Below, in pieces: positions 1,357 to 57,179 of a stretch of 59,638 nucleotides of DNA (the stretch's first letter is position 1; every line of letters starts with the position of its first letter). The notes under the pieces were generated by a model. It did not search any database. It was not told the origin of the DNA and saw only the letters and a program-made list of their open reading frames with translations. This stretch comes from a virus. Taxonomy: Duplodnaviria > Caudoviricetes. Both the position numbers and the translations under genes were made by a program. The DNA is taken from the IMG/VR virus record IMGVR_UViG_3300040529_000001, positions 1 to 59,638 of that record. The stretch is one strand, 5' to 3'.

Positions 1357-1484
1357 TGGTCTGGAGGACGTGCCAGACGTGCAGGGGCAAGATGAAAGTT
1401 CCGGACCCTAAGAATCCCAGCCAGACGAAGGTCTGCCCCGCGTGTCGGGGCGAGGGCGGGGCGAACACTCAGACCACGCCCTGA
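1356..1484 (+). CDS. 42-aa DnaJ-type zinc-finger microprotein, tandem paralog; not in ORF track
   Basis: Translates as MVWRTCQTCRGKMKVPDPKNPSQTKVCPACRGEGGANTQTTP; shares the 19-bp GAGGACGTGCCAGACGTGC with the preceding ORF. Confidence 0.75.
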   Translation: MVWRTCQTCRGKMKVPDPKNPSQTKVCPACRGEGGANTQTTP

Positions 1485-1498
1485 CAATGAACTGTCAA

Positions 1499-1532
1499 CA
1501 GGCCCGCCGGGGATGTCTCCTGGCGGGCCTGT
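1499..1532. terminator. hairpin / intrinsic terminator
   Basis: Inverted repeat ACAGGCCCGCCGGGGA...TCCTGGCGGGCCTGT after the microprotein cluster. Confidence 0.6.
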
Positions 1533-1569
1533 TCTGTACGCTGAGCAGCAGAGCCCCGAGGAGGCCGCC

Positions 1570-1905
1570 ATGCCACTGAACACCGCCGGTATTACCGCCG
1601 TTCTGGAGGACGGTAACGAGGCCGTTGTCTGGGTCGCGGTGGGAAGCGGTCCGACCGCCGGGGACCAGACGTCCGCCCAGCGCCGCCAGCTCACCAGCAC
1701 GGTGGCCGCTGGCGTGATCACGGCCAACGGGCTGCCCTACTCGTACACCGGCACCCCGGCCGCTGGCGCCACCCACGCGCTGTTCTTCAGCGCGAACGCG
1801 GCCGGGACGTTCTACGGGTACGACGCGCTGACGGGGGACCAGGCGTTCAACGCGGCCGGAGAGTACGACATCACCGCGCTGACCATCACCGGCTCCAGCA
1901 CCTGA
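1570..1905 (+). CDS. putative virion structural protein (small tail/fibre-associated)
   Basis: GAGGAGG RBS; Ala/Gly/Thr-rich beta-strand protein within the structural operon. Confidence 0.65.
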   Translation: MPLNTAGITAVLEDGNEAVVWVAVGSGPTAGDQTSAQRRQLTSTVAAGVITANGLPYSYTGTPAAGATHALFFSANAAGTFYGYDALTGDQAFNAAGEYDITALTITGSST

Positions 1906-1918
1906 TCGGGGGCCGACG

Positions 1919-2842
1919 ATGGCCCAGACGCTGTTCACCTCCCAGGTCCCGGTCAGCCCGGACCTCAGCGACAACACGGTGTATTCCCTCGGGACGTACT
2001 TCACACCGGCCGTGGACGGCACCGTCACGCACATCCGCTGGTGGTTCCCCTCCACTCCCCAGCCCGGTGGCGTGCCGGTCAAGGCGGCGCTGTTCCGTAC
2101 CTCGGACAGCGCCAAGATCAGCGACCCCGTAGATGTGGAGTTCGCCTCCCCCGGGACGCTCAACGACTGGAACCAGGTGGCCCTCAGTCCACCGGTGGCG
2201 GTCCTGGCCGGGGTCACCTACTGCGCAGCGATCCGCACCCCGGGCCGATACCCGAACTCCGGCGGCGCCTCTTCGCCCTGGCCCATCACGAACGGTGACC
2301 TGAGTACCGGCCTCCAGGCGGGCCGGTTCAACGACATGGGCAGCCCCGGCGGCCCGGACGTCGTGTTCCCCACCAACAACTTCAACGACGGGTGCTACTT
2401 CGTAGACCTCGTGTTTGAGCCGGACGGCGGGACACCGGCCGAGGGCACGGTGGGCCTGGGCCTGGACCTCGCGGTGGCCGCCACCGGCGGCGCGGACGCG
2501 GAAGGATCGGCCGCCCTCGGGCTCGGCCTCGCGGTGGCCGCCAGCGGCACGGCACGGGCTCAGGGAGCGGTGGCCCTCACTCTCGGACTCGCACCGGCCG
2601 CCGCCGGGGAGAGAGCCTCTCAGGGCGCGGCGGCCGTAGGCCTGGGCCTCGCGGTGGCCGCCACCGGCGAGCGTGCGGCGCGCGGCGCGGCGGCCCTCGG
2701 GCTCAACCTCGCGGTGGCCGCCGCCGGGTCGAACGGTGAGGCCGGGTGCCCGGTGTCCCCGTGGCCCTGGACTCCCCGGGTGCTGACCGGATACCCCGAG
2801 ACAGCCCGACCTGTAAAGTCATTCCCAGGAGGGGATTGTTGA
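1919..2842 (+). CDS. DUF4082-domain virion protein with C-terminal Ala/Gly/Leu repeats
   Basis: YSLGTYFTPAVDGTVTHIRWW...WNQVAL...YFVDLVF matches DUF4082; about 5 repeats of LGLxLAVAAxG. Confidence 0.7.
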   Translation: MAQTLFTSQVPVSPDLSDNTVYSLGTYFTPAVDGTVTHIRWWFPSTPQPGGVPVKAALFRTSDSAKISDPVDVEFASPGTLNDWNQVALSPPVAVLAGVTYCAAIRTPGRYPNSGGASSPWPITNGDLSTGLQAGRFNDMGSPGGPDVVFPTNNFNDGCYFVDLVFEPDGGTPAEGTVGLGLDLAVAATGGADAEGSAALGLGLAVAASGTARAQGAVALTLGLAPAAAGERASQGAAAVGLGLAVAATGERAARGAAALGLNLAVAAAGSNGEAGCPVSPWPWTPRVLTGYPETARPVKSFPGGDC

Positions 2843-3654
2843 TGGCGGTTCCGTGCTCGTGGGATGTGGTCGTTCCGACCGATATGTGTTCGGGCTGGGC
2901 TGACTACCCCCAGGCCACCAAGGACACCGCGCTGTGGCTCGCCTCCACGTACCTGTGGGCCGCGACCGGGCGCCAGTACGGAGCTTGCCCGGTGACGGTG
3001 CGGCCCAGCCAGGGCGGTGGGGCCGAGCTGGTCTACCAGGACTTCCCCGTGGCGCCAGGTCACGCCGGTATCGGCGTGCCGGGCGGCCCGTTCCTGTTCG
3101 CTGGCCGCTGGTTTAACTCCGGGTGCGCCACCGCGTGCTGTGGTTCGTCCGCGTGCGCCGTGGTCCTGCGTGGCCCGGTGGCCAGCGTGGACGAGGTCAC
3201 CGTGGACGACGAGGTGATCCCTGCCAGCGCGTACCGAGTGGACATCACCGGCGGCGCGTGGCTCCTGGTCCGGGTCGATGGCGAGTGCTGGCCCGCGTGC
3301 CAGAACTTCACGGCCGACGAGGGCGAGGTGGGATCGTTCACGGTGACGTACGCCCTGGGCCGGGCGCTGCCCGAGGCCCTGGCTATCGCTACCGCCATGC
3401 TGGCCTGTGAGTACGCCAAGAGCATCGTGGGCGCGGTGTGCGCGCTGCCCGCCAAGATGACCCGGCTGTCCCGCCAGGGCGTGGAGATCGAGCTGGAGCC
3501 CGCCGACCCCGGGGACGGTAAGACCGGGGTCAAGTTCGTGGACGAGGTGATCAGCGCGCTCAATCCGAGCAAGCGCCGGAGCCCGCCTCTGTTGCTCTCG
3601 CTCGACCTCCCCGAGGCGTGCGACCGCATCACGGTGATCGGGACGGGGAGCTGA
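2842..3654 (+). CDS. head-to-tail adaptor
   Basis: Motifs ASTYLWAATGRQYG and CALPAKMTRLSRQGV; TGATG coupling; gene position. Confidence 0.75.
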   Translation: MAVPCSWDVVVPTDMCSGWADYPQATKDTALWLASTYLWAATGRQYGACPVTVRPSQGGGAELVYQDFPVAPGHAGIGVPGGPFLFAGRWFNSGCATACCGSSACAVVLRGPVASVDEVTVDDEVIPASAYRVDITGGAWLLVRVDGECWPACQNFTADEGEVGSFTVTYALGRALPEALAIATAMLACEYAKSIVGAVCALPAKMTRLSRQGVEIELEPADPGDGKTGVKFVDEVISALNPSKRRSPPLLLSLDLPEACDRITVIGTGS

Positions 3655-6181: not shown

Positions 6182-6892
6182 GTGGAGGTGGACCCGCTCG
6201 CTTCCATGCGGTGCTGGGCCATTGAGCTGGAGCTGGGGGGCCGGACGTTCGACGTTCCGGCCCTCCCCGCTGTGGACTGGTGGCCGGTGCTGGTCTCCGG
6301 CGACCTCGCCCAGATCCTTGACTTTGTCGTGTCAACTCCGGAGGACCCGTTCAACCTGGACGATCTCTTGCTGGAGGGGAGGGTGACCCGGGACGAGCTG
6401 GCCGAATCTCTCTCGGACGCCATCGAGACCGCCGCCGGTCGCTCGTTCCACTCCGCGTTCGTGCTCGCCACGGTGGCAAACAGCCAGTGGGCGGCCGTCA
6501 ACGGCACGCTGGCCCGGCGCGGTTTCCGCTGGGACGAGCAACCTCTGGGCGCCGCCCTTGACGCGCTCTACGTCACGATCACCGAGGGGCTGAGCAAGGA
6601 GAACCTGGACAAGTTCCTGGCCATCTTGGAGAACGAGGCGCTGACCCAGAAGGGCAAGAAGCGCCAGCCCACCGAGCGCGTGATGACGGAGTTCGAGACC
6701 TTTGCCGGACCCCGGCCTAAGACAGGCGTGAAATCCACCGGCGCGCCGTCCGATAATGCACGCCCCAGAACTCAGCCACGGCCCCAGCGGCCCCGCCGGG
6801 GCGGCCCGTCGAACGCGCCCAGGCAGCTACCCGGGCCACCCGCTGAAAGTGGTCCGGGGGCCAGCCCCGGGAGCCCGCTGGGCGAGGCTTAG
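6182..6892 (+). CDS. putative second tail assembly chaperone (pre-tape-measure protein)
   Basis: Last plus-strand gene before the tape measure; helical; its 3' end overlaps an antisense gene. Confidence 0.55.
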   Translation: MEVDPLASMRCWAIELELGGRTFDVPALPAVDWWPVLVSGDLAQILDFVVSTPEDPFNLDDLLLEGRVTRDELAESLSDAIETAAGRSFHSAFVLATVANSQWAAVNGTLARRGFRWDEQPLGAALDALYVTITEGLSKENLDKFLAILENEALTQKGKKRQPTERVMTEFETFAGPRPKTGVKSTGAPSDNARPRTQPRPQRPRRGGPSNAPRQLPGPPAESGPGASPGSPLGEA

Positions 6893-7145
6893 CCAGCATC
6901 CGGTATTGGGCCTCGCCCTCCCCAGCCAGCGCGCTAGCGGCCACGCTGGCGAGCTGGCGGACGGGGATCTGGGCCAGGACCGTGGAGGTGACCGGGCCAC
7001 CGTCACGCGCCCACACGACCAGGCCCCGGACCCGGGGCCGGTCGGTCCTCTGGTCCAGGTATACGTCCACGGTCCACGGCCACTCAGGATCGACCACCTG
7101 AACCATGTCCCCGGTGTTCGAGAGCTGAGCGCGTGAGACATCCAT
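6717..7145 (-). CDS. HTH DNA-binding protein (DUF6214-like)
   Basis: C-terminal AVAEFWGVHYRTARRWI helix-turn-helix; minus-strand TAGGAT -10 box 6 nt before the ATG (leaderless). Confidence 0.7.
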   Translation of the reverse strand: MDVSRAQLSNTGDMVQVVDPEWPWTVDVYLDQRTDRPRVRGLVVWARDGGPVTSTVLAQIPVRQLASVAASALAGEGEAQYRMLAKPRPAGSRGWPPDHFQRVARVAAWARSTGRPGGAAGAVAEFWGVHYRTARRWISRLS

Positions 7146-7216
7146 CTGGCCATCCTAGCCGAGATGCCCCCTTGATCTGAGGGACAGTGACATCTCACGG
7201 CCCGTACGCTGACCAC

Positions 7217-10165
7217 GTGACAGATGTCGGTTCCGCCCGGGTAGAGGTCACGGGGGACGTACGCGACTTTGCCCGTAAGACCGAACGGGACCTTGACCGT
7301 GCATTGTCACGGATCAAGCTGGACCCGGTGCCGGTGGAGGCCGACCTGGACGCGGCCCGGCGCTCCGGTGAGCAGGCCGGGGAGGAGCTGGGCGACGGCA
7401 TCACCCGGGGAGCGGACGGCAAGCTCCGCGATTCCAAGGGCAAGTTCGTGGCCATGGGTGACCGGGCCGGGGCCGCCGCCGGTGACGCGGCCGGGAGGGC
7501 CGCTGGGAAGAACATCGGGCGGAGCCTCCAGAAGAACACCGACGAGAGCAGTATCCGCCGGTTCCTGGCGGGCCTGTTCGGCCGCACCGGCACCGACTCC
7601 GCAACGCTGTTCGCTAACTTCCTCACCAAGGGCATCCAGCGCATCCCGGCCCTGATCGGCCCCGCGCTGATCCCCATCGGGGTGGCGGTGGCCGGTGGAA
7701 TCGCGCTGGCCGCCGGGGCCGTGATCGGCTCGCTGCTGGGCGCGGCCATCACGGCCGGGGTGGGCCTGGGCGCGCTCGGGCTCGGCGTGGTGCTCCTGAA
7801 GGAGGAGCCCGCGCTGAAGGCCGCCGCCAAGCGGCTGACCGATTCGATGAAAGAGGAGTTCACGGCCGCCGCCCAGCCGCTCCTCCAGCCGCTGATTGCG
7901 GCCCTGGGCCAGTTCGAGCAATTGATAGGCCGCGTCGCCCCCCAACTGAAGGCCGCGTTCTCTGGGCTGGCCCCGGCTATCGCTCCCCTGACCGCTGGCC
8001 TTATCGCGCTGATCGAGAATGCGCTACCGGGGTTCGTGGACCTGGTCCAGGCCAGCGAGCCAGTGCTGGCCGCATTCGGTGGTGGACTCGCCAAGATCGG
8101 TACGGCAATCGGGACGATGTTCTCCACGATTGCGGACGCGAGCCCAGAGCTGGCGATCTTCTTTGACGACTTCTTTGATGGAATCAGTTTCCTGATCGTG
8201 AAGCTGGGCGATTTCATCGCCTGGGCTGGCCGGGCCTACGCTTCCGCCAAGCAATTCATTTCAGGGTTCGACTCCTGGCGAGAAGGTTTCGACTTCGCGG
8301 TTACCGCCATCCAGGGACTGATCAGCCGGGGACTTGATTACCTCGTCGCTAATCTCCCGACCATCATCGAAAAGATCATTGCTTTCCGCCAGCAAGTCAC
8401 GGAAGCCATTCTCAAAATGGTGACCGGGCTGGCCGACGCGCTCCCGACGATCATCCCCCAGATCGTCCAGGGCGTGGTCCAGCTCGTGACCGGCCTGGTG
8501 AACGCGCTGGTATCGAGCGCGCCCAAGATCATCACGGCCGCCGGTCAGTTGGTCAACGGCCTGGTGGACGGCCTGATAGCGGCCCTCCCGGTCCTGATCC
8601 CGGCCGCCATCCAGTTGGTCACCACGCTGGTGACGGGCCTCATCGGGTTGATCCCGATCATCATCCAGGCTGGCCTACGGCTGATCCAGGGTCTCGTGAC
8701 GGGCCTGTTGACCGCGCTCCCGACTGTGGCGACGGCGCTCACTCAGGCCATCCCCCAGATCCTGAGCGCGTTCATCTCGGCCGCGCCTCAGCTCCTGCTC
8801 CTCGGGATCAACATCATCACGGCCATCATCCAGGGCATCGGCCAGGCCATGCCCCAGATCGTGACTGCCATCCAGACTCAGGTCATCCCCACGCTGCTGG
8901 AGACGCTCTCGACTCAGGGACCGGCCCTGATGAGCCAGGGCATCACGATGATCCAGCAATTGATGGATGGGCTGACCAGCAACCTGGGCATCATCGTTTC
9001 CACGATCACGGGGACGATCATTCCGGCAATCGTGGAGTTGTTCCAGAACAACCCGCAATTCTTCCAGGCTGCCCTTGCCGTGTTTGAAACGCTGCTCCAG
9101 GCGTGGGCCGCCAACGTCGGAATCATCACCACGTTTATCACGGGGACTCTGATTCCCCAGATCGTGCAATTGTTCCAGGACAACCCCGGCCTGATCCAGG
9201 CTGGCCTTGACATGATCCTGACCATTGTCAACGCAATGGCTCAGAACGCGGACATGTTCATCAGCTTTATCTCGGACACGCTGATCCCGATCATCGTCCA
9301 AGCGCTGATTGACAATGGTCCGCAATTGGCCCAGGCCGCCATTATGCTGATCCTGGCGCTTAACCAGGCGTTCATTAAGGCCATCCCGTCAATCCTGGGT
9401 GCAATCTTCCGGATCAATTCCGCCATTATCCAGGGTGTCCTTCAGGTCATCGGTGGGATTATCGCGGCCGGTTTCCGGATCATGCAGAACTTCGGCCAGT
9501 CGATCGCCAGCGCCGGAATGAGCGCCGCGCGTAGCGCCATCAACACCGTGCGCGGCGCCATCATGAGCGCGGTCAGCTCGGCCGGTAACTGGCTGATCAG
9601 CACCGGCCGGACCCTGATCAACGGCCTGGTCTCGGGCATCCGTAACGCCATCAACACCGTGCGCTCCGCCATCACCTCGATCCGGAGCACGGTGACCGGC
9701 GCCCTGGCCGGTGCCGGGGGCTGGCTGGTCAGCGCGGGCCGCCAGATCATCGACGGCCTGATCTCCGGCATCCGGGCTGGGTTCGGCCGGGTCCAGGGCC
9801 TCCTCAACTCCTTGACGTCGATGCTGCCCGATTGGAAGGGTCCGGCCGAGGTGGACCGGAAGATCCTGCGGAGGTCCGGCCAGCTCGTGATGGACGGTTT
9901 CCGGGACGGCCTGGCGGACCGGCTCGAACCGATCCAGAAGACCCTGGGCCAGTGGACCGGTGACCTTCCCAGCTTCACCGGCTCCCCCAGCGCGGACCGG
10001 TGGACGGGCGGGTCCGGGTCGGATGACTTCTCCGGCTCCTCCTCGGGGATGTGCGTGACGATCGAGGCCGGAGCCATCGTGATCAACGGGCAGGGAGCGG
10101 AAGCCGGAGAGCGGGCCGCTGAGGCCATCCTGGAGCGTCTCGGCGCTGCTACCTTGGCACGATGA
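7217..10165 (+). CDS. tape measure protein
   Basis: About 980 aa, Ala/Ile/Gln amphipathic repeats, LRDSKGKF N-terminal motif, DWKGP C-terminal motif; GTG start 6 nt after a TACGCT -10 box. Confidence 0.93.
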   Translation: MTDVGSARVEVTGDVRDFARKTERDLDRALSRIKLDPVPVEADLDAARRSGEQAGEELGDGITRGADGKLRDSKGKFVAMGDRAGAAAGDAAGRAAGKNIGRSLQKNTDESSIRRFLAGLFGRTGTDSATLFANFLTKGIQRIPALIGPALIPIGVAVAGGIALAAGAVIGSLLGAAITAGVGLGALGLGVVLLKEEPALKAAAKRLTDSMKEEFTAAAQPLLQPLIAALGQFEQLIGRVAPQLKAAFSGLAPAIAPLTAGLIALIENALPGFVDLVQASEPVLAAFGGGLAKIGTAIGTMFSTIADASPELAIFFDDFFDGISFLIVKLGDFIAWAGRAYASAKQFISGFDSWREGFDFAVTAIQGLISRGLDYLVANLPTIIEKIIAFRQQVTEAILKMVTGLADALPTIIPQIVQGVVQLVTGLVNALVSSAPKIITAAGQLVNGLVDGLIAALPVLIPAAIQLVTTLVTGLIGLIPIIIQAGLRLIQGLVTGLLTALPTVATALTQAIPQILSAFISAAPQLLLLGINIITAIIQGIGQAMPQIVTAIQTQVIPTLLETLSTQGPALMSQGITMIQQLMDGLTSNLGIIVSTITGTIIPAIVELFQNNPQFFQAALAVFETLLQAWAANVGIITTFITGTLIPQIVQLFQDNPGLIQAGLDMILTIVNAMAQNADMFISFISDTLIPIIVQALIDNGPQLAQAAIMLILALNQAFIKAIPSILGAIFRINSAIIQGVLQVIGGIIAAGFRIMQNFGQSIASAGMSAARSAINTVRGAIMSAVSSAGNWLISTGRTLINGLVSGIRNAINTVRSAITSIRSTVTGALAGAGGWLVSAGRQIIDGLISGIRAGFGRVQGLLNSLTSMLPDWKGPAEVDRKILRRSGQLVMDGFRDGLADRLEPIQKTLGQWTGDLPSFTGSPSADRWTGGSGSDDFSGSSSGMCVTIEAGAIVINGQGAEAGERAAEAILERLGAATLAR

Positions 10166-10181: not shown

Positions 10182-13100
10182 ATGGGCTCGATCACTACGC
10201 TGCGTCCGTCCACCACCTCCTCGGGGGTGGGCTGGACGCCGAGCACGGGCACGCTCCACGGGGTCACCTCGGACGACTCCGATGCGACGTACGCGACCTG
10301 GACCGGCGCCGGTTCGCCCATGATCCTGGGCACGCCGGTGGATTCCCCGCCCGCTGGCGAGCGCCGCCATCAGGTCCGCATCCGCGCGCGCGGGGAGGAC
10401 GGTGACGCCTGGTGGGCCGTGCGCCTGGGCTCCGGTGCGCTGACCGCCGGGGCCGCCGCCCAGTTCACCGCCTCCCCGAGCACGGTCATCGGTTCCTGGG
10501 GGTTCGGCGCGCCGCCGGACGGCGCCACGATCCTGTCCACCTACGTCACGGGCGAGTCCACCGGCGTCAAGATCAACGAGCTGTATATCGACGTGGACTG
10601 TCGGGACGCCCCGACCTTCACGCCCCAGATCCTGGACGGCTCCGGCACCTCCACCGTCACGATCTCCGACACGGCCCAGCCCACCGTCCGGGCCAGCGCC
10701 ATCGACCTGGACGACCTGGCCGCCCATCAGTACCGGTACTGGGTCACGCTCAACGGTGCCGTTGTCTGGGACACCGGCATCACCTCGGGCTCCGCCATCA
10801 ACCGGCAGACCACCGCGCTGGACAACGGTTCGTACGTGGCCCACCTGATCCTCTGGAGCACGCTGGGCCAGAACACCGCCAACCCGAGCGCCGAGGAGAC
10901 GCTGGCCTTCACGGTGTCCGTGGGCCAGGTCCAGCCACCCCTCAACCCGACCGTGACGCCGCTGGCGGACAGCCCGTTCTACGACATCGAGGCGTGCGCC
11001 CCGTTCGTGGAGGATCTGGACGGTTCGGTGGGCTGGGTGGAGGTCCAGCGGGTGGACTGCCCGGTGGGTGGATACCTCACGCTGCCTGGGAACTTCGGTT
11101 CCTACGCGGGCACGCCCGATCCGGGCGTGGCGCTGACCGACCTCCAGGTGACGATCAAGGCTGGCCGGGACGACGACTGGCGCCCAGACAGCATCGAGAC
11201 CCTGGCATCTCACAGCGACACGGACCTGAACTTGCGGTCCTGGTTGGTCAGCGTGGCCCAGAGCACCGGCATCCCGTCGCTGACCTGGAGTGATGACGGG
11301 GTCCTGACCACGGACGTATCGGCTACCGAGCGGGTGCCGGTGGACCCGTTCGGCGTGATCCGGCTCCGGGTGCTGCTGGACACCGACGACGGGGCCGGGG
11401 GCTGGACGGTCACGTTCCAGTACCAGGAGACCGACGAGGGCGAGTGGCTCCAGCTCGGGGACGTGGTGACCAACAGCGGCGGGGGGACCACCTCGCTGTT
11501 CCCCGCCACCGGCGTGGAGATGATGGTCGGTGCCGATTCGGACGCTGGAGCACCGGCCAACCGGTTCACCGGCCGGATCTACACAGTGGAGGTTCGTAGC
11601 GGCGCGGCCGGGGCGGTAGCGGCCAGCCCGGACTTCACCAACCACCTGGAGGGGACAACCTCGTTCGAGGACAGCCAGGGCAACGTCTGGACGGTCTACA
11701 GCCCGGCCTCGATCTACTCACCCACCAGCACGGTGACCCTGGCCATGCTCGGCCCGCTGGCCAGCGACGAGTGTGCGATCTGGACGGACTACACCCTTCC
11801 CCGGTCCGGGGTCGGCATCACGTGCGACCACGCCCCGGTGGCCTGCTGTTCGTACTACCGGGCGCGCACCATCGGGCGCGAGGACGGGGACCTGAGGATC
11901 AGCAACTGGTCCGACGTGCCGGACCTCGGAATCCCCAGCGGCGTGATCGTGATGTGGCCCTCCACCGAGGGCACGATCCCGGCCGGATGGGACCGGGTCA
12001 CCGCGCTGGACGGCCGGTACCCCAAGGGCGTGCCGAACGCCACCACCCAGCCGGGCACCCTTGGCGGCGCGGCCACCCACACCCACGCGGTTCCGGCTCA
12101 CGCGCACGTCACCACCCACGGGCACGGCAACACCGGCAACACCTCCGCCGGGGTCGGCGCGGTCAACAGCCACGACGGGGCGGTGGGCACCACCGCCATC
12201 TTGTCCAGCCACGTGCACACCCAGACCAACACGGACCAGGTGGTCACGGACAGCGGTTCCACCACCCCGTCCATCACCTCGATCTCAAACGACACCGAGC
12301 GGCTGGAGGTGCTGTTCGTGGAGTCGGACGGCACCCCGGCCGGGGTGCCGGACGGTGCGCTGGCGCTGACCCCTGACATTTCACTGTCAGGATGGACGGA
12401 CTACACGGATGCGGCCAACCGTCTGATCAAGGGCGCCAGCGGTTCCAGCGGTGGAGCCACCGGGGCCAGCGCGGTGGACAGCCACGTCCACGCGCTCGGC
12501 GCACACACCCACACCGGAACCAGCCACACCCACACGGCTACGGCCTCCAGCGTGGCGTCCAACCGGTCGCTGTTCGCCGGTCCGACCACCGTGCTGTGGA
12601 CCAGCGCGCACAGCCACCCGATCACGGCCGCCGCCGCCGCGTTCGGGACGCTGGCCTCTGCCGGTTCGGCCAACACCGGCGCGGCGGCATCGTCGATGCT
12701 CCCCCCGTACCGCAACCTCCGGGTCAAGGAGAACACCTCCGGCGTGCCGGATCTCCCGGTGGGCCTCATCTGTGGCTGGCGTAAGTCGCTCGGCACCATC
12801 CCCGGCAACTGGCAACTCTGCGACGGGACCAACGGCACGCCGGACATGTTCGGCCGCTACCCCCGGGGAGCCACCGCCAGCATCGGCACGGCCGGGGGAT
12901 CGGCCGCCGCTCACAACCACACCCAGCCCACCCACGGCCACACCTCCAGCGGTCACACCCACACCAAGACGGTCGGATCGGCCGCCGCCGCCACGGCCGC
13001 CACCAGCGCCACCGTCACGGTCAGCGTGTCCACCGGGACGCACACCCACACGGCCGCCGCCACCGACACGTCCACCCCGGCCGTTACCGACCTGGCCGCC

Positions 13101-13598
13101 ACCACCGTGCCGAGCACCACCTCCGAGCCCCTGCACGAGGAGTTGGCGTTCATCCAGTTGATGGAGCCGCTCACCCCGCCGGACGACCCGTCCGTGTTCT
13201 GCCTGGACTGGGACGATGACGAGCACCTGATCCGCACCCTGGGGCCGGACGGCCCGATCTGGGCGCCGGTGCTGGGAAAATTCGAGTGGGTGGTGGACCG
13301 CGCGTTCACGGCCGCCACGGGGATCAACGGCGGACGGTTCGTCACCAGCGCGGAGCCGGGCGGCCGGAACCTGACCATGACCGCCGCCGTGGAGAGCGAG
13401 GCCGACCTGGCCCAGCTCCGCGCGGTGCTTGCTCGGCCGCTGGTCCTGATCAGCCCGAGCGACGCCAGCGAGGTCTGGGCGGCGCCGGTCAGCGAGTCCG
13501 TCCGGATCGTCAAGGTGGGCCGCATCCGTCAGGTCACCGCCTCGTTCGTCGGGACGGGGCCTCAGCCTCCCCCTCAACTGGCCGACGTGGGAGTATGA
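10182..13598 (+). CDS. minor tail protein with LamG-like insert, tail-collar modules and HxH repeats
   Basis: Follows the tape measure; collar motifs IPAGWDRVT..DGRYPKG and WQLCDGTNGTPDM; many H-T-H repeats. Confidence 0.85.
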   Translation: MGSITTLRPSTTSSGVGWTPSTGTLHGVTSDDSDATYATWTGAGSPMILGTPVDSPPAGERRHQVRIRARGEDGDAWWAVRLGSGALTAGAAAQFTASPSTVIGSWGFGAPPDGATILSTYVTGESTGVKINELYIDVDCRDAPTFTPQILDGSGTSTVTISDTAQPTVRASAIDLDDLAAHQYRYWVTLNGAVVWDTGITSGSAINRQTTALDNGSYVAHLILWSTLGQNTANPSAEETLAFTVSVGQVQPPLNPTVTPLADSPFYDIEACAPFVEDLDGSVGWVEVQRVDCPVGGYLTLPGNFGSYAGTPDPGVALTDLQVTIKAGRDDDWRPDSIETLASHSDTDLNLRSWLVSVAQSTGIPSLTWSDDGVLTTDVSATERVPVDPFGVIRLRVLLDTDDGAGGWTVTFQYQETDEGEWLQLGDVVTNSGGGTTSLFPATGVEMMVGADSDAGAPANRFTGRIYTVEVRSGAAGAVAASPDFTNHLEGTTSFEDSQGNVWTVYSPASIYSPTSTVTLAMLGPLASDECAIWTDYTLPRSGVGITCDHAPVACCSYYRARTIGREDGDLRISNWSDVPDLGIPSGVIVMWPSTEGTIPAGWDRVTALDGRYPKGVPNATTQPGTLGGAATHTHAVPAHAHVTTHGHGNTGNTSAGVGAVNSHDGAVGTTAILSSHVHTQTNTDQVVTDSGSTTPSITSISNDTERLEVLFVESDGTPAGVPDGALALTPDISLSGWTDYTDAANRLIKGASGSSGGATGASAVDSHVHALGAHTHTGTSHTHTATASSVASNRSLFAGPTTVLWTSAHSHPITAAAAAFGTLASAGSANTGAAASSMLPPYRNLRVKENTSGVPDLPVGLICGWRKSLGTIPGNWQLCDGTNGTPDMFGRYPRGATASIGTAGGSAAAHNHTQPTHGHTSSGHTHTKTVGSAAAATAATSATVTVSVSTGTHTHTAAATDTSTPAVTDLAATTVPSTTSEPLHEELAFIQLMEPLTPPDDPSVFCLDWDDDEHLIRTLGPDGPIWAPVLGKFEWVVDRAFTAATGINGGRFVTSAEPGGRNLTMTAAVESEADLAQLRAVLARPLVLISPSDASEVWAAPVSESVRIVKVGRIRQVTASFVGTGPQPPPQLADVGV

Positions 13599-17492: not shown

Positions 17493-18002
17493 ATGATCGA
17501 CTACCTAAAGTTGCTGGACAAGATCAACCCCAGGCCAGACGGGGAGGACAAGATCCGGCTACGGACCGGCACGGTGACCACGGTCAACGCTGACGGAACC
17601 CTTGACATCACGATGTCAGACGGGGTGCTCCTGCCGAACGTGAACAAGCTCGCCACCGCGTACGCGCCCGCTGGCGCGGTGGTCCAGATCATCGTGTTCC
17701 GGGGCGCCATGCTGGTGATCGGCGCGGTGGGTACGGCCGCTGTCAACGGCCCGATGACCAAGACCGGCGCCACCTCCACCGGTCCGTCTGGCCTCACCTC
17801 GTTTACCACGGCGGTGGCTTTCGGCGTGACCTTTCCGGCCATCCCGAACGTGCACGTCAATCTGAACGGCGGCGCCGGTGCCACCGCGAGCTGGAACGAA
17901 CGGGCCATCAGCGTCTCCACCACGGGCTTCACGATCTTCGGATACGGCCCGGCCGCCAGCTTCACAGCGTCGTATCAGTGGACCGCCATCTACGCACCGT
18001 AA
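17493..18002 (+). CDS. minor tail protein (OB-like N-terminus, H-type-lectin/gp53-like C-terminus)
   Basis: RLRTGTVTTV N-terminus; VAFGVTFPAIPNV...VSTTGFTI...YQWTAI C-terminus. Confidence 0.7.
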   Translation: MIDYLKLLDKINPRPDGEDKIRLRTGTVTTVNADGTLDITMSDGVLLPNVNKLATAYAPAGAVVQIIVFRGAMLVIGAVGTAAVNGPMTKTGATSTGPSGLTSFTTAVAFGVTFPAIPNVHVNLNGGAGATASWNERAISVSTTGFTIFGYGPAASFTASYQWTAIYAP

Positions 18003-23289: not shown

Positions 23290-23312
23290 CCCCCGCCTGA
23301 GGCGGTGCTGGA

Positions 23313-41125: not shown

Positions 41126-41170
41126 CCGTGCATCGTCACGGTTGACACCTTGCAGTGATGACGGTAATGT
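41122..41170 (+). promoter_or_regulatory. tandem operators plus promoter TTGACA-N17-TAATGT (leaderless ATG 41178)
   Basis: TTGACCGTGCATCGTCAC, then TTGACACCTTGCAGTGATGACGGTAATGT. Confidence 0.78.
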
Positions 41171-42328: not shown

Positions 42329-42357
42329 TTGACACTTCACTGTCATGGCTGTAAGGT
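42329..42357 (+). promoter_or_regulatory. promoter/operator TTGACACTTCACTGTCATGGCTGTAAGGT
   Basis: Consensus hexamers plus the palindrome. Confidence 0.8.
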
Positions 42358-44364: not shown

Positions 44365-44610
44365 CTACTTCTTCTTGTTCTTCTTGGCCAACCGCTCCAG
44401 GTGCTCCCGGGAGGCCTTGTCCTTCTCCGCCTGGGTCTTCCCCTGGGTCCGGGCACCCCCCTTGACCTTGGTGCCGTCCGCCGTCCGGGTCTCCAGCCGG
44501 ACCCCGTCGTGGATGTCGCGCCGGGTGTGTCCGTTGCCGGTCTGTGGTCCCTGGGGGGACAGCCATCGGTCCGAGCTGGCCTGGTCGGTGCGGTATCCCT
44601 TGGTGGCCAT
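44365..44610 (-). CDS. small basic hypothetical protein
   Basis: GAGGAG RBS; promoter/operator at 44651-44679. Confidence 0.7.
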   Translation of the reverse strand: MATKGYRTDQASSDRWLSPQGPQTGNGHTRRDIHDGVRLETRTADGTKVKGGARTQGKTQAEKDKASREHLERLAKKNKKK

Positions 44611-44650: not shown

Positions 44651-44679
44651 ACATTACAGTGTTGACTGTGAAGTGTCAA
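44651..44679 (-). promoter_or_regulatory. promoter/operator TTGACACTTCACAGTCAACACTGTAATGT
   Basis: Consensus hexamers plus the palindrome. Confidence 0.8.
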
Positions 44680-45795: not shown

Positions 45796-46497
45796 GTGAG
45801 CAACCACCGCCAGCGTACACAGAGAGGCCCGTCCCTGGTCTCGATCGTCGTGACCGGCGCGGCCACCCTGGCCGTGATCATCCTGGCCTTCTGGGTCATC
45901 ACCGGCCCGGTCACCGATCAGCGGCACCTGACCGGGGGCCTCCTCGGGATCGTGCTCGGGGTGCTGATGACCAGCCAGGTGGTGGTCAGGGTGACCGAGC
46001 GCCAGATCGTCACCGATGAGCTGAGAGCGGCGGCCGACCGGGCGCGCCGGGAGCGCGTGCTGAACACCGGGACGTGGCTGGGTGACCAGCCCAGCCAGGA
46101 GCTGACCGTGCGCTGGGACGGCGCGGCCCACCGGTACCTGGTCCAGGGCTGGACCGGCGCGCCGCCGTACCTGGCCCGGGAGCGGGAGTGGACGGACAGC
46201 CTGGACGAGCTGGCCGAGATGCTGACCGACATCGAGCGGGCTGGAGAGTTGCGGCCGATCGAGGACGAGGGCACGCGCATGGTCCGTGCCAGGCTGGCGC
46301 TGCCCGGATGGGACGACGTGGCCGAGCCGGACCCGGTGGCGACCCAGCCCACCGGTACGGAGCCCGCCCACCTCCAGCGCGTGCCGGTGCCGTTGCGCGG
46401 TGAGTACGACGGGCCGACCCGCAACCTGAGCGAGCAGGCCAGGAACCTGACCCGCCAGGCGCGCCGGGTGCGCAACGACTGGGGCGACCGCCCTTGA
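45796..46497 (+). CDS. membrane protein (2 TM)
   Basis: Two N-terminal hydrophobic helices; GAGG RBS. Confidence 0.7.
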   Translation: MSNHRQRTQRGPSLVSIVVTGAATLAVIILAFWVITGPVTDQRHLTGGLLGIVLGVLMTSQVVVRVTERQIVTDELRAAADRARRERVLNTGTWLGDQPSQELTVRWDGAAHRYLVQGWTGAPPYLAREREWTDSLDELAEMLTDIERAGELRPIEDEGTRMVRARLALPGWDDVAEPDPVATQPTGTEPAHLQRVPVPLRGEYDGPTRNLSEQARNLTRQARRVRNDWGDRP

Positions 46498-46510
46498 CAT
46501 TGCACTGACA

Positions 46511-46573
46511 AGGCGGGCCGTGGAGACGCGGTCCGCCTTTTTGCTTGACACCTTGCAGTGATGACGGTAAGGT
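46511..46573 (+). promoter_or_regulatory. U-tailed terminator plus promoter TTGACA-N17-TAAGGT (leaderless ATG 46581)
   Basis: AGGCGGGCCG...CGGTCCGCCTTTTT, then the promoter at 46545-46573. Confidence 0.78.
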
Positions 46574-49281: not shown

Positions 49282-49399
49282 GGGGTGTTCTAAGGGTGGC
49301 ACCTTCACGCCGGGGCAAGAACGGTGCACGTTTCGTTGCCGTACGCCTGTAAGGTAGGGGGCGCGCCGGGACCGCCCCGGCCGCAGGAAGGAGCACGTG

Positions 49400-49756
49400 A
49401 TGCGCAAGTTCTTCGCGGCGCTCGCCGTGGCCCTGGCGCTCGTCGCCGGGTCGCTGGTGGCGTCCACCCCGGCCCAGGCCGTGGGCTCGTGTCAGAACGG
49501 CTGGATCTGCTTCTGGAACACGTCCAGCTCCACCTCGTCCATCTGGTCGATGGACAGCGCGGACACCTCGCCCGGTGAGTGCCACGTCCTCCCCAGTGCT
49601 GCCACGTCCTACATCACGAACAAGGGCGGGTACTACTGGAGCCTCTACACCGGCTCGTTCTGCCAGACCTGGCCGGTCGGCACGCTCTACCCCGAGACCA
49701 GCGGCGGCATCGGCGCGCCCTGGAACAACAACGCTCGGAGCTTCAAGCGCCGGTGA
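49400..49756 (+). CDS. secreted peptidase-inhibitor I36 / beta-gamma-crystallin-like protein
   Basis: Sec signal ending in AQA; CQNGWICFW...SYITN...LYTG..C...WNNNARSFK. Confidence 0.72.
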   Translation: MRKFFAALAVALALVAGSLVASTPAQAVGSCQNGWICFWNTSSSTSSIWSMDSADTSPGECHVLPSAATSYITNKGGYYWSLYTGSFCQTWPVGTLYPETSGGIGAPWNNNARSFKRR

Positions 49757-49839
49757 CAGTGCACTGTCAGCCCGGCCCCGGTGCGCGCCTCACGGCCACC
49801 GGGGCCGAGATGTCCCCTTGACCCCGTAGGATGTGGCAC

Positions 49840-52116: not shown

Positions 52117-52934
52117 CCGGCCCGGTGTGGGACGGCAAGGGCCGTGACCCCTGGTTGCCCCAGCGCCTGGACGCGCGGCTGGAGGCCGCCACCGTGGAGC
52201 GCGACATCCGGGCGGCCGTGTGGGCGGCGCTCTCGGACTGGCTGGTCCAGCTCTCGCGGCGCATCTTGCGCGGTGACGGGCGCCCGGACATGGACGCCGT
52301 GTGGGCCATGGTCCCGATGTGGCGGGACGCGGTGGACCTGATCTTGCGCGGCGAGATCCTGAAGGCCATCGGCCTGGCGTTTGAGAAGCTGCTGGGTACG
52401 GACTACCGCTGGACCCAGCGGCCGTTCGTCACGGCCTACCTGGCGGAGGTCCGTAACCGCCTGGTGCGCATCCCCGAGGAGGTCTACGACCTGGTAGCCG
52501 GGGAGGTGGCCAAGGGGGTCAACCTCGGGGAGTCGATCCCCAAGCTGGCCGCCCGCATTGACAGTGTCCTGTCAACCACCGGGTCCGAGCGCTGGCCGAA
52601 TCGCGCCACGGTGGTGGCTCGCACCGAGACCATCGGCGCGCTGAACGCTGGCCGGGCCGACGCGTTCCGGGCGGTAGCCGCCGACGCGGACGAGGAGCTG
52701 GAGATGTTCTGGCTGGCGACCGATGACAGCCGGACCCGGCATACCCACCGCGAGGCCGAGGGGCAACGCGTCCCCGTTGGGTCCGCGTTTGTCGTGGGTG
52801 GTCACGAACTCCGGTTCCCCGGCGACCCCAGCGGCCCGCCGCAGGAGGTCATCCAGTGCCGGTGCACCATGCTGCTGGTGGAGCCCGGGGAGTCCGTCGA
52901 TCTCAGCAACCGCCAGATGCGCCGGTCCCGGTAG
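52113..52934 (+). CDS. MuF-like minor head morphogenesis protein
   Basis: Motifs ARTETIGALN, WLATDDSRTRHTH and FPGDP.GPPQEVIQCRC. Confidence 0.9.
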   Translation: MTGPVWDGKGRDPWLPQRLDARLEAATVERDIRAAVWAALSDWLVQLSRRILRGDGRPDMDAVWAMVPMWRDAVDLILRGEILKAIGLAFEKLLGTDYRWTQRPFVTAYLAEVRNRLVRIPEEVYDLVAGEVAKGVNLGESIPKLAARIDSVLSTTGSERWPNRATVVARTETIGALNAGRADAFRAVAADADEELEMFWLATDDSRTRHTHREAEGQRVPVGSAFVVGGHELRFPGDPSGPPQEVIQCRCTMLLVEPGESVDLSNRQMRRSR

Positions 52935-54861: not shown

Positions 54862-54890
54862 ACCTTACCGTCTTGACTGCGAAGTGTCAA
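54862..54890 (-). promoter_or_regulatory. promoter/operator TTGACACTTCGCAGTCAAGACGGTAAGGT
   Basis: Consensus hexamers plus palindrome, preceded by a hairpin at 54897-54923. Confidence 0.8.
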
Positions 54891-55323: not shown

Positions 55324-55352
55324 ACATTACCGCCTTGACTGCAAAGTGTCAA
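55324..55352 (-). promoter_or_regulatory. promoter/operator TTGACACTTTGCAGTCAAGGCGGTAATGT
   Basis: Consensus hexamers plus the palindrome. Confidence 0.8.
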
Positions 55353-55633: not shown

Positions 55634-55938
55634 GGCGCGACCTTCCGGACCTCGCGCTGGAGCCACCGGCACCCGGCCGCCCAGACGTACCGCTCCTCCA
55701 GCCCCCCGCCCACCACCGGGGTCCACTCGAACGGCACGTGGCGCCAGCTCGTGAGGAGGTAGTCCGGGACGAACGAGGTATAGCCGGTGTTGCCCCCGAA
55801 CTCCTCCAGCGCCACGTTCACGCCGCGCCAGCCCGAGGTCCGCCAGCGCGAGTCTCGCTGGACCCGCCCCTGGACCCGGAGCGCGCTGGAGCCGTTGGTG
55901 ATGGTGGAGCCCACCTGGACCACCAGCGGCGCGCTCAT
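55630..55938 (-). CDS. hypothetical protein
   Basis: ATGA and GTGA overlaps. Confidence 0.6.
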   Translation of the reverse strand: MSAPLVVQVGSTITNGSSALRVQGRVQRDSRWRTSGWRGVNVALEEFGGNTGYTSFVPDYLLTSWRHVPFEWTPVVGGGLEERYVWAAGCRWLQREVRKVAP

Positions 55939-56219
55939 CCGGCCACCACCGGGAGGTGGACCCAGACCCAGCCATCGGCCGGAATCGGCACGGTCTCCAC
56001 GCTGACCCCGTCCACGCGGGCCACGCGCCACTGGCGCCAGGACGAGGGCTCCTCCACCTTCTGGCCCTCCACCTCCTCCACGATGATGTGCTCCGTCACC
56101 GCGCCGATCCACTGGCTGGGCCGGGGTCCGTTCGCCCCGATCGGGCTGACCACGAGCATGTCCCCGGTGGCCACCAGGGCGGCACTCACGCGAGCCGGGC
56201 GGATCTTGATCTCTTCCAT
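55935..56219 (-). CDS. hypothetical protein
   Basis: AGGGGAG RBS; overlap with the next gene. Confidence 0.62.
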   Translation of the reverse strand: MEEIKIRPARVSAALVATGDMLVVSPIGANGPRPSQWIGAVTEHIIVEEVEGQKVEEPSSWRQWRVARVDGVSVETVPIPADGWVWVHLPVVAG

Positions 56220-56272
56220 TGCTGCTCCCCTGAGGGTTGTGGGCGGGAGCCTCGCGGCCCCCGCCCGGTCGG

Positions 56273-56980
56273 TTACTTGCTGGCGCAGATCGGGCCGATA
56301 CCGGCTGCCCGGCTCGCCTCGTCCGTCAGGGTCCGGCCGCACCGGCCGCACTCGCCCAGCTCGTGGCCGTAGCGGATCATGGCCGCCTGGGGGTCCTGGG
56401 CGATCAGGGCCACGATCTCCCGGATGCGGGTCACGTTGCGGACCGCGTGCCACTCGTCGCTGGCCTGGATGTCCAGGAACACGAACCCCGGGCGACCGCC
56501 GTTCTTGACCTTGAAGAACTTCAGCGTCCCGTCCTCCTCCACCGCGTACCGGCCGTCCGCAACCTCCGCCATCGGGGCGGCCGGGGCCTTGCGGGCCGCC
56601 GCCTGGCGGAGTTCGCGCTCCTTGCCGATCAGCCGGGTGATCCAGTCGCTGGCGTTGCCCTGGCGGCCCGGGGTCCACAGTCCGCGCTCGGTCATCCCCA
56701 TGGTCCAGCTCGCAGCCTTGCAACCGGTCTCCAGGTCCAGCTCCCCGATCTGCTTGATCAGCTTCTCCATGAGCTGGGCCTGGGGGACGGTGCGGAGGTC
56801 GGCAACCTTGTCCGCCGGGACCAGGTTGAGGAGGTCATCCTGACCGGCCTCGGTGGCCAGCGCCGCCGCGTCGTCCCGGTAGTTGCGGCCGTTCGAGCCG
56901 ATGGCGGAGTGGAAGGTCTGGAGGAAGCGGGCGGTGTGGGGGTTCCGGGTGTAGTTCCGCTCGATCGTCTGGGTGCTCAT
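56273..56980 (-). CDS. DUF6011-domain protein
   Basis: C-terminal CGRCGRTLTDEASRAAGIGPIC; conserved start motif. Confidence 0.82.
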   Translation of the reverse strand: MSTQTIERNYTRNPHTARFLQTFHSAIGSNGRNYRDDAAALATEAGQDDLLNLVPADKVADLRTVPQAQLMEKLIKQIGELDLETGCKAASWTMGMTERGLWTPGRQGNASDWITRLIGKERELRQAAARKAPAAPMAEVADGRYAVEEDGTLKFFKVKNGGRPGFVFLDIQASDEWHAVRNVTRIREIVALIAQDPQAAMIRYGHELGECGRCGRTLTDEASRAAGIGPICASK

Positions 56981-57024
56981 GGCTGGTGGGCCTTCCCGTT
57001 CGGTGTGCCGTGCTGACAGGACAA

Positions 57025-57053
57025 ACATTACCGTCCTGACTGCGAAGTGTCAA
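57025..57053 (-). promoter_or_regulatory. promoter/operator TTGACACTTCGCAGTCAGGACGGTAATGT
   Basis: Consensus hexamers plus the palindrome. Confidence 0.8.
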
Positions 57054-57179
57054 CACCCGGGGAGGAGGACATCTGGGTCCGGTTGGCCGCCCCGGTGCTA
57101 CCCTGACGCTTGACACGCCAGCGTCAGGTCTCGGCCCGGCTGGAGGTCGATCAGCCCCCGACCGACTGAAGGCGGACCC

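Follow-up and report, generated by a model that had tools for sequence, protein, structure and literature searches.

A dispersed 18-bp dyad in promoters and genes of a phiAsp2-related phage lineage: a possible genome-wide operator network

To our knowledge, phage site networks that extend over a whole genome are known in detail only for the Cluster A mycobacteriophages, and the palindromic repeat of the Cluster O mycobacteriophages has been left unexplained since 2015. In lambdoid phages, the operator dyad overlaps the core promoter and is read by a helix-turn-helix (HTH) dimer; these operators are a handful of sites clustered at the immunity region, with no network of some 30 sites reaching into the structural genes. 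The temperate Streptomyces phage phiC31, which encodes an integrase and whose repressor gene is known, has many conserved inverted repeats (CIRs) of about 17 bp dispersed over its genome; these intergenic sites lie near early promoters and terminators and are recognized by the c repressor. The stoperators of Cluster A, targets of a repressor of the L5 gp71 type, are asymmetric 13-mers recognized by a two-domain monomer in an orientation-dependent manner in temperate phages; a roadblock function has been shown, and a block of initiation as well as of elongation has been proposed (PMC9283540). The Cluster O repeat is a 17-bp dyad present in 34 copies in Corndog, between and within genes and absent from the hosts, for which dimeric binding was proposed, with no known binder and an unknown function (PMC4351075). 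Here we analyze a soil phage through the complete 59,638-bp sequence (69% G+C) of IMG/VR virus record IMGVR_UViG_3300040529_000001 (Duplodnaviria; Caudoviricetes), hereafter the window, which carries a dispersed palindrome, TGAC-N8-GTCA, in promoters, at gene junctions and inside genes. The nearest named relative is the Actinoplanes phage phiAsp2 (58,638 bp), with 78.6% nucleotide identity over patches and a gene order in common. An initial annotation, made from the sequence alone, had set the palindrome against the stoperators as asymmetric sites of temperate phages, a fair contrast, although a precedent closer in being palindromic, the Cluster O repeat, was overlooked.

The window holds 28 exact copies of TGAC-N8-GTCA, as compared to 0.94 expected from 100 dinucleotide-preserving shuffles (standard deviation 0.93, largest 4), none of which attained 28; a second-order Markov control resulted in a mean of 1.02 and a maximum of 4 (100 runs). 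Both the spacing and the arms are specific: all other spacings from N0 to N14 yielded 0-3 copies, and among the 24 letter permutations of the arm TGAC gave 28 copies, GATC 8 and the others 0-4. All 27 positions listed in the initial annotation proved to be exact, the listed number being the base before TGAC so that the sites start one base later, and a further exact site was recovered at 59407. The seven near-matches it had listed are one-mismatch sites at 20772, 25342, 30266, 30713, 41143, 46495 and 46546. The exact copies are scattered across the whole genome with a largest gap of at most 5.1 kb, and are found in promoters (ten), inside open reading frames (ORFs; ten), on stop or start codons (five) and elsewhere between genes (three). 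Separately, GATC-N8-GATC, with its 8 copies in the window, occurs 13 times in the relative G004 and 15 times in G020, against 2.1 expected in each; this excess may represent a second, weaker dyad signal or a by-product of GATC usage.

The full site is an 18-bp dyad, TTGAC-N8-GTCAA, with T as the outer flank in 40 of 56 half-sites (symmetrised count over the 28 sites), which bears out the extension to T...A flanks noted at the outset. By the same count A follows TGAC in 33 of 56 half-sites, and 199 non-promoter sites from 12 genomes show the half-site preference T-TGAC-A-(C/G)-T-(G/T). The inner positions of the two halves are complementary no more often than by chance, with observed/expected values of 0.41/0.45, 0.31/0.31, 0.51/0.48 and 0.28/0.30 (172 unique non-promoter sites, permutation). 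Thus, the two half-sites appear to be read independently, as by a protein dimer, rather than to form a hairpin, and the independent half-sites and the strict spacing are congruent with the geometry of a dimeric binder proposed initially.

The dyad is restricted to a phage lineage. Among 30 related IMG/VR records, 12 contain 16-36 copies, with 36 in phiAsp2, while a control pattern reaches 0-3. Intermediate counts were obtained for G028 (a 32.6-kb fragment; 13), G016 (8) and G029 (7), and the other 15 records have 0-3; G017 and G018 hold one dyad each and no promoter-type site. The exact 17-mer of the promoters described below is present on 89 IMG/VR stretches in roughly 55 contigs, those already familiar belonging to the same phage group, and a search of representative genomes from 185,579 species gave no match to the 26-base promoter pattern. 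A scan of bacterial genomes, suggested in the initial annotation, gave no enrichment: in 301 Actinomycetes-class genomes, the counts of TTGAC-N8-GTCAA were 0-8 each as compared to 0-5 for the control, although the host genus may lie outside this sample. The sole count of 8 reflects a repeated element, and the result is independent of three unpublished genomes in the set (G293, G066 and G062). Motif density is a property of the phage lineage, not of the sampled hosts. No palindrome or repeated 10-mer that substitutes for the dyad was found in the motif-poor relatives. As a side observation, 10-mers of the type CCCTGGCCGA or CACCCTGGCC recur 14-16 times each in G017 and G018 (loci L113-L115 and L160-L162), and may be a different dispersed motif or a coding repeat.

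In ten copies, the dyad supplies the -35 box and the spacer of near-identical promoters, TTGACA-N17-TAAnGT, with the right arm GTCA at a fixed place in the spacer. The dyad then spans -35 to -18, with its centre at about -26.5. The initial estimate that about half of the copies use the left arm as a -35 box was close, the count being 10 of 28. Seven of these sites are leftward, each preceding a small leftward gene except the one at 22339, and three are rightward:

22327-22355, minus strand, promoter-type TTGACA-N17-TAACGT (dyad at 22339), between convergent genes, aiming left into the antisense strand of 21973-22305
22926-22954, minus strand, promoter-type TTGACA-N17-TAAAGT (dyad at 22938), for the leftward 157-amino-acid (aa) gene 22402-22875; also recovered in a generic sigma-70 scan
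23608-23636, minus strand, promoter-type TTGACA-N17-TAAGGT (dyad at 23620), for the leftward 68-aa gene 23353-23559
44651-44679, minus strand, promoter-type TTGACA-N17-TAATGT (dyad at 44663), for the leftward 81-aa gene 44365-44610
54862-54890, minus strand, promoter-type TTGACA-N17-TAAGGT (dyad at 54874), for a leftward 73-aa gene
55324-55352, minus strand, promoter-type TTGACA-N17-TAATGT (dyad at 55336), for a leftward 130-aa gene
57025-57053, minus strand, promoter-type TTGACA-N17-TAATGT (dyad at 57037), for the leftward DUF6011 gene 56273-57028
23682-23710, plus strand, promoter-type TTGACA-N17-TAATGT (dyad at 23683), heading the rightward early operon with a gene start at 23753
24515-24543, plus strand, promoter-type (dyad at 24516), in frame within ORF 23753-25297; exact site in 6 of 6 aligned relatives
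42329-42357, plus strand, promoter-type TTGACA-N17-TAAGGT (dyad at 42330), exact dyad

Over 12 genomes, 106 promoter-type sites conform to the consensus TTGACACTTCACAGTCAnGnC(T/G)GTAAnGT, most positions exceeding 90%, as counted by a looser rule (TANNNT at 16-18 nucleotides, nt) that in the window also admits 28978, a site not accepted here as promoter-type. The -10 box of actinobacterial sigma-A promoters is of the TANNNT type, and the ten sites agree with the sigma-A pattern, with a -35 box near TTGACA, a spacer of 16-18 nt and a TANNNT-type -10 box; the promoter reading rests on this rule and on conservation. Similar SigA-like promoter calls are made for Cluster O (PMC4351075).

Five of the seven near-matches (25342, 30266, 30713, 41143 and 46546) are promoters of the same family, mainly with one base of the right arm changed. 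Thus, the right arm is likely dispensable for the promoter itself, which marks it as an added operator half. These second-class promoters are:

25341-25369, plus strand, second-class promoter TTGACA-N17-TAATGT, right arm GTGA (one mismatch)
30265-30294, plus strand, second-class promoter TTGACA-N18-TAACCT, one-mismatch dyad with right arm GTCG
30712-30740, plus strand, second-class promoter TTGACA-N17-TAAGGT, one-mismatch dyad, preceding the superfamily 2 (SF2) helicase gene
41142-41170, plus strand, second-class promoter TTGACA-N17-TAATGT, right arm GTGA
46545-46573, plus strand, second-class promoter TTGACA-N17-TAAGGT, right arm GTGA

The last of these belongs to a compact arrangement (46495-46573), in which a one-mismatch dyad is followed by a strong terminator and then by the second-class promoter from 46545:

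46495-46510, no strand assigned, one-mismatch dyad with right arm GACA, followed by a terminator with a 13-bp stem and a T run (46510-46539)

The late capsid operon begins with a different combination, the dyad starting 6 nt past an extended -10 box (TGcTAnnnT) and hence occupying about +1 to +16:

57096-57126, plus strand, capsid-operon promoter with extended -10 box TGcTACCCT (57096-57104) and exact dyad 57111-57126

This -10 box is kept in 15 relatives, and the dyad in 9 of 11 motif-rich relatives. Directly 3' of the box, 57111-57150 holds a hairpin and then a second GC-rich inverted repeat, and the motif-poor relatives have a hairpin at the same place with other stem sequences (e.g. CCAGAC/GTCTGG), pointing to a structured and conserved 5' end of the late mRNA.

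The promoter at 24515-24543 reads in frame as L-T-L-H-S-Q-D-G-K-V, with an ATG 7 nt past its -10 box. In the relatives G002, G004, G005 and G013 the corresponding long ORF holds one or two in-frame promoters, and phiAsp2 has separate genes (pas41-43); long early ORFs with in-frame promoters may be several leaderless genes.

Inside genes, the sites are maintained at synonymous positions. In 300 within-gene synonymous-codon shuffles, the codon-preserving control proposed in the initial annotation, intragenic sites averaged 0.53 with a maximum of 3, as compared to 11 observed. The frame xTT GAC nnn nnn nnG TCA Axx is common to ten of these eleven. Of the peptides that permit the 16-mer in that frame 10 of 48 carry a site, and of those that permit the full 18-mer 7 of 11 do, a near-saturation of permissive codon contexts that suggests selection for site density as such. 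At third-codon positions, the arms in 11 motif-rich relatives are 79% identical to the window (n=292) versus 57% for the flanks (n=1480), while in the motif-poor relatives, which have the same residues at these positions in GC-rich codons, the arms are 38% identical versus 52% for the flanks. The site at 52559 is found as exact TTGAC-N8-GTCAA in 11 of 11 motif-rich relatives and is absent in all five motif-poor ones (G016, G003, G017, G018 and G009), where synonymous codons rich in GC have taken its place, in G016 only in part. The intragenic copies are positionally conserved in the 11 related phages, and their description as carrying rare A/T-ending codons, with overlaps of stop and start codons at 26946 and 29933, was correct from the beginning. 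The sites inside genes, given without strand and with the number of motif-rich relatives that have an exact dyad at the orthologous place, are:

6319-6334, exact dyad in the ORF ending at 6892, frame xTT GAC ... nnG TCA Axx; 10 of 11 relatives
7294-7309, exact dyad in the 992-aa tail gene (7187-10165); 6 of 11 relatives
12374-12389, exact dyad in the 1138-aa tail gene (10182-13598); 5 of 11 relatives
14640-14655, exact dyad in the 938-aa tail gene (13603-16419); 9 of 11 relatives
16688-16703, exact dyad in the 357-aa tail gene (16419-17492); 8 of 11 relatives, phiAsp2 at the same offset (+269)
17603-17618, exact dyad in ORF 17493-18002; 1 of 11 relatives, thus young or fortuitous
20772-20787, one-mismatch dyad (left arm TGTC) in the methyltransferase-domain gene (19126-20967); orthologous exact site in phiAsp2 and G002
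32654-32669, exact dyad in ORF 32457-33260; 1 of 2 relatives with a covering alignment (G005 yes, G006 no), no orthologous position being reached in the other nine
35818-35833, exact dyad in the 1432-aa gene with DUF3854 and family-A DNA polymerase domains; 1 of 8 aligned relatives
52559-52574, exact dyad in the MuF-like head-morphogenesis gene, the best-conserved intragenic site
59407-59422, exact dyad in the ORF spanning the window ends (58994-59638, on to 1-273); 2 of 11 relatives

By offset, the polymerase gene of phiAsp2 has a dyad about 84 nt from the equivalent of 35818.

At gene junctions, the left arm provides the TGA stop codon at four sites (26946, 28978, 41123 and 49754), two of which, 28978 and 41123, adjoin the -35 box of a downstream promoter. 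At a fifth site the dyad is centred on a start codon, and this TTGAC-nn-ATG-nnn-GTCAA arrangement is common to six genomes, the window included. Together with two further intergenic copies, again without strand, these are:

26946-26961, exact dyad, left arm holding the TGA stop of ORF 26385-26948, with the ATG (26952) of the RuvC-like gene (assigned by PHROG 159) at its centre
28978-28993, exact dyad, left arm serving as TGA stop codon for the RecE/YqaJ-like gene, dyad end 3 nt short of the -35 box in TTGCTA-N17-TAAGGT (28997-29025)
29933-29948, exact dyad centred on the ATG (29939) of a 109-aa gene
41123-41138, exact dyad, left arm serving as TGA stop codon for the large terminase-like gene, dyad end 3 nt short of the second-class promoter at 41142
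49754-49769, perfect 16-base palindrome, left arm being the TGA stop of ORF 49397-49756, with a hairpin after it, upstream of the portal/head block; phiAsp2 has the same arrangement at the stop of pas2
1482-1497, exact dyad, intergenic, lacking a -10 box and directly followed by a GC-rich hairpin
37666-37681, exact dyad, flanked by the hairpin that follows the polymerase gene and by the ribosome-binding site for gene 37696-38772

These observations sustain the initial claim of a dispersed, strongly selected palindromic network over promoters and inside genes. As to its role, the reading we favor, with about an even chance of being right, is that the 18-bp dyad is the binding site of a regulator specific to the phage lineage, acting as a dimer or as two symmetric monomers, and that the network would serve as a genome-wide set of transcription operators. 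The 28 or so exact and 7 near sites would then form one operator network. Judged from its geometry, a dimer bound to the dyads at about -26.5, or to the late-promoter dyad at +1 to +16, would keep RNA polymerase from binding, and with the sites positioned as they are in the promoters, occupancy would block initiation at most phage promoters. The other sites, at junctions and inside genes, are found for the most part in the long late operon; those at junctions and inside the 25-kb late block could act as elongation roadblocks, by analogy to the stoperators. Promoters with a weakened right arm (25342 and 30713), which drive recombination and replication genes, might escape first. The outcome would be a global damping or a timed shut-off of phage transcription, possibly a carrier-state silencer.

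Several findings weigh against a transcriptional operator network. One-mismatch sites as a class are not enriched (16 seen versus 26.4 expected), so that the network would consist of the exact sites and a few specific variants. A generic E. coli-type TATAAT scan accepts one of the ten promoter-type sites (the 22954 promoter), along with the separate promoter of an HTH gene, and misses the others because their -10 box is TAAnGT. Selection for site density fits a structural or marking role equally well as regulation. Moreover, G003 keeps the HTH protein that is our leading candidate binder, with the HTH and wing motifs almost unchanged (two conservative substitutions), yet the network is lost: 3 dyads remain, 2 of them promoter-type, and the conserved intragenic ones are gone. 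The structural genes of G003 nest among the motif-rich phages in a four-protein tree, and its whole early/replication module is replaced relative to them. Conversely, G016, with structural genes from the motif-poor branch, keeps the early/replication module and five promoter-type sites, with only 3 other sites. Among the relatives, no single gene is present and absent in step with the network; the network depends on something in addition to this protein, or has a role linked to the early module. Finally, apart from a weak C-terminal HTH in the 6717-7145 protein, no other DNA-binding domain was detected in the Pfam scans of 60 ORFs or the PHROG scans of 30.

The HTH gene and its promoter, which is conserved in several relatives including G003, lie where the sites are most densely clustered (4 in 1.4 kb), and the dyad of the promoter at 22926-22954 is located about 27 bp upstream of the -35 box of the HTH-gene promoter. 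Together with the other HTH protein put forward in the initial annotation, the features are:

22981-23010, plus strand, HTH-gene promoter TTGTCA-N18-TATAGT, without a dyad
23017-23289, plus strand, 90-aa excisionase/MerR-like winged-HTH protein (Pfam HTH_17, PHROG 597), candidate binder
6717-7145, minus strand, 142-aa basic protein (isoelectric point 11.2) with a C-terminal HTH, inside the tail gene block; Pfam HTH_23, E=0.0012, under the cut-off

The 90-aa protein matches PHROG 597 ('DNA binding protein') with E=1.9e-18 and Pfam HTH_17 (PF12728) with E=7.2e-5 at 23.4 bits, under the curated cut-off of 27, and its best match among solved structures, RdfS, is not significant (E=0.4). Its counterpart in phiAsp2 is Pas39. 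The HTH helices are identical in all 14 genomes with promoter-type sites and differ in G017 and G018. A homodimer prediction (two copies, 15-sequence alignment) scored 0.09 against a mark of 0.42, which speaks neither way. Within the operator reading, we regard this protein as the leading candidate binder, its role being possible rather than probable; of the two proteins first proposed, it keeps its place but is weakened by G003. The 6717-7145 protein is unlikely to be the binder, as its HTH is nearly invariant in all 16 relatives including the five motif-poor ones, being essentially unchanged in G003 and nearly invariant in G017 and G018. The next candidate after the 90-aa protein would be an unrecognised product of the early/replication module. 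A 125-aa protein (25410-25787) was at first the best presence/absence match and was dropped, since it is acidic (isoelectric point 4.3) and a core homologue is present in G003. The 109-aa protein 29939-30268, modelled by AlphaFold2 with a mean predicted local distance difference test score of 82, yielded no Foldseek match in the PDB at E<=0.001 and no significant PDB sequence match. The N-terminal half of ORF 23753-25297 matched only unnamed clusters in a protein atlas, with scores of at most 0.79, and its conserved N-terminal domain is shared by 6 relatives only.

The alternative that fares best, though we consider it doubtful, is a phage protein with a non-transcriptional role, which would organise, mark, replicate or protect the genome, or use the sites as entry points for replication or recombination, the overlap with promoters being secondary. 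The coating proteins p6 of phi29 and TF1 of SPO1 serve as comparisons for such a role. The use of 7 of 11 permissive 18-mer contexts fits well, since density itself looks selected, as does a genome-wide distribution with no gap above 5.1 kb. The network also co-occurs with the early module (a fusion of primase-like and PolA domains, SF2 helicase, RecE-like and RuvC-like genes), and is lost in G003 where the module is replaced; the Cluster O authors, moreover, thought a transcriptional role unlikely for their analogous repeat (PMC4351075). However, ten sites are in a fixed promoter register and one is placed at +1 of the late promoter, and G016 has the replication module with almost no dispersed sites. 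By a rough estimate, the gaps between sites are also not clearly more even than random.

It is unlikely that the sites have no dedicated binder and are instead a spreading promoter-derived sequence, serving as decoys for RNA polymerase and sigma-A, as weak entry points, or as patches of homology through which mosaic phage modules recombine. The half-sites do resemble the TTGACA -35 box (A after TGAC in 33 of 56, T before it in 40 of 56), and many sites lie exactly on gene junctions (26946, 28978, 41123 and 49754). In addition, contigs of relatives end or join at the promoter repeats, possibly as an effect of assembly, and recombination between repeats was inferred for Cluster O (PMC4351075). 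Nevertheless, the intragenic sites arose in place through synonymous changes at orthologous codons, with no insertion of a promoter copy, and the right arm is found at the exact distance even where a -10 box is lacking. The sites of G003 have furthermore drifted to GC-rich codons although this phage still uses the host RNA polymerase.

A slightly smaller chance still is left for a host transcription factor or nucleoid protein that binds the dyad and for which the phage has accumulated sites. Such a factor would explain why no phage gene fits the presence pattern of the network, but the counts in the 301 Actinomycetes-class genomes stay at 0-8 versus 0-5 for the control, with the host genus possibly outside that sample, and G003, G017 and G018 share structural genes, and presumably a host group, with the motif-rich phages while lacking the sites. 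Least of all do we expect an RNA or single-stranded DNA hairpin acting in processing, stability or priming: the 57111 copy coincides with a 5' hairpin that relatives keep with other stems, and the 49754 copy could form a 6-bp stem, but the inner pairs lack excess complementarity in the 172 unique sites, the commonest variant pairs in its 4-bp arms only, the arms are fixed in sequence rather than co-varying, and the promoter copies lie upstream of their own transcription start.

Returning to the operator network, the lifestyle of the phage bears on what it could be for. A six-frame search of the window gave no match to a tyrosine integrase, a serine recombinase/resolvase or ParB, and one genome each of 185,579 species contained no close prophage or integrated relative, the capsid search finding one distant relative. 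This agrees with the initial description of the genome as apparently lytic. On the other hand, that description is qualified by work on Propionibacterium acnes phages (PMC3094311), in which pseudolysogeny is exemplified by citing, among others, the paper on the isolation of phiAsp2. For a phage kept in a carrier state without integration, a global silencer would make sense. We propose, tentatively and as an improbable but not negligible extension, that the dyad is the symmetric counterpart of the stoperators in a non-integrating actinophage lineage: one small dimeric regulator would silence nearly all promoters, the late capsid promoter included through its site at +1, and would occupy roadblock sites that selection has placed in almost all codon contexts suited to them, allowing a quiet episome or carrier state to persist without integrase or partition genes, with the network decaying once the early module is exchanged, as in G003.

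Some hints come from RNA. Two soil metatranscriptome runs of one study contain contigs of a close relative, located at 22555-22892, 23018-23361, 23337-23585, 24603-25151, 25406-27977, 28596-28964 and 29146-30291 of the window. Transcription from sigma-A promoters begins 6-8 nt past the -10 box. Since the -10 box TATAGT of the HTH-gene promoter ends 6 nt before the ATG at 23017, a leaderless mRNA is predicted, and the 345-nt contig at 23018-23361 runs from this predicted leaderless start (+1) to a terminator hairpin, although contig ends do not equal proven transcript ends. The data are assembled contigs without levels or transcript ends, and uncovered stretches (late genes, polymerase) are not readable as silence. 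One stretch, 26008-26362, is skipped by the contigs of all four runs, thus an insertion/deletion difference between close relatives; it holds ORF 26024-26338, coding for a 104-aa protein with a lipoprotein-like signal peptide.

The gene map is approximate, being drawn from the third-position G+C phase and ORFs, with family scans of 60 ORFs against Pfam and 30 against PHROGs. A 99-bp repeat is present at both ends of the window (1-99 and 59540-59638), within the ORF that continues across the ends. Thus, the record is a circular assembly that was opened arbitrarily, and the repeat does not represent physical genome termini; the phiAsp2 annotation uses another start point. A long rightward late block comprises the portal, MuF-like, capsid and tail genes and leads to a set of glycosyltransferase, methyltransferase-domain and glycosyltransferase genes. 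It is followed by a short switch region (22.3-23.7 kb) of small divergent genes, and by a rightward early block with the RuvC-like, RecE/YqaJ-like, SF2 helicase and 1432-aa polymerase genes, after which terminase and lysis-like genes are found. Two small groups of leftward genes lie at 44.3-45.5 kb and 54.6-57.0 kb.

Within this map, a single ORF (33332-37630) fuses the DUF3854 domain, which we take to be Toprim/primase-like, to the family-A DNA polymerase domain. Two neighbouring early proteins, encoded at 29357-29836 and 30281-30673, have a common C-terminal motif, G-R-F-x-G-x-x-Y-K-x-F, and look paralogous; neither matched a Pfam or PHROG family. The block 18480-21707 codes for a family 2 glycosyltransferase, a 613-aa Methyltransf_24-domain protein and a second glycosyltransferase-like protein, and is retained in relatives without the dyad network. 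We considered this block as a motif-directed modifier and rejected it, as G003, G017 and G018 keep the genes without the motif.

The lineage offers a cleaner case than described systems for asking how such networks work, the dyad being built at a fixed register into some ten strong promoters of nearly the same sequence, placed where the late operon starts, and written synonymously into structural genes. The natural 'knock-outs' (G003, G016 and G017/G018) and the cultured phiAsp2 on Actinoplanes make two questions directly testable: what protein recognizes the sites of such a network, and whether the effect is to silence transcription, to organise DNA, or to do the two together. The set of promoters and operators could also be a compact toolkit for regulated expression in high-GC actinomycetes.

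As compared to Cluster A, the likeness lies in one short site that recurs more than 20 times across some 50-60 kb of phage genome, both within promoters and in short intergenic spaces or where genes meet. Unlike the stoperators, the site is here an 18-bp dyad with equivalent and independent half-sites, so that the orientation of its arms is undefined and the constant orientation that characterizes Cluster A has no counterpart; furthermore, ten copies lie deep in ORFs, where they are maintained by the choice of synonymous codons. A repressor of the Cluster A type was not recognised among the 60 Pfam-scanned ORFs, no search having been aimed with a Cluster A repressor sequence. The motif strings were not found described in the literature searched, and the 2004 genome paper of phiAsp2 may mention a repeat. 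The likeness to Cluster O is closer: a palindrome of invariant arms around a variable centre, dispersed in some 30 copies per genome between genes and in ORFs, absent from bacterial genomes, and with positions that are mostly conserved in relatives and occasionally lost through single or synonymous changes. Cluster O likewise has SigA-like promoters, leaderless genes and a leftward gene for a DNA-binding protein in the structural operon, and its O-methyltransferase and two glycosyltransferases are resembled by the block 18480-21707. The sites themselves differ, with arms of 7 bp and a spacer of 3 bp in Cluster O versus arms of 5 bp and a spacer of 8 bp here. In Corndog, moreover, promoters are close to only 4 of the 34 sites, and a transcriptional role seemed unlikely to the authors (PMC4351075), while in the window 10 of 28 sites are in promoters at a fixed register, another coincides with +1 of the late promoter and a further two adjoin -35 boxes. 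The kind of feature is known, and the present network differs in four respects: the sequence and geometry of its site, the way in which that site is built at a set position into some ten promoters and the late promoter, the near-saturated use of permissive codon contexts and its natural loss in relatives.

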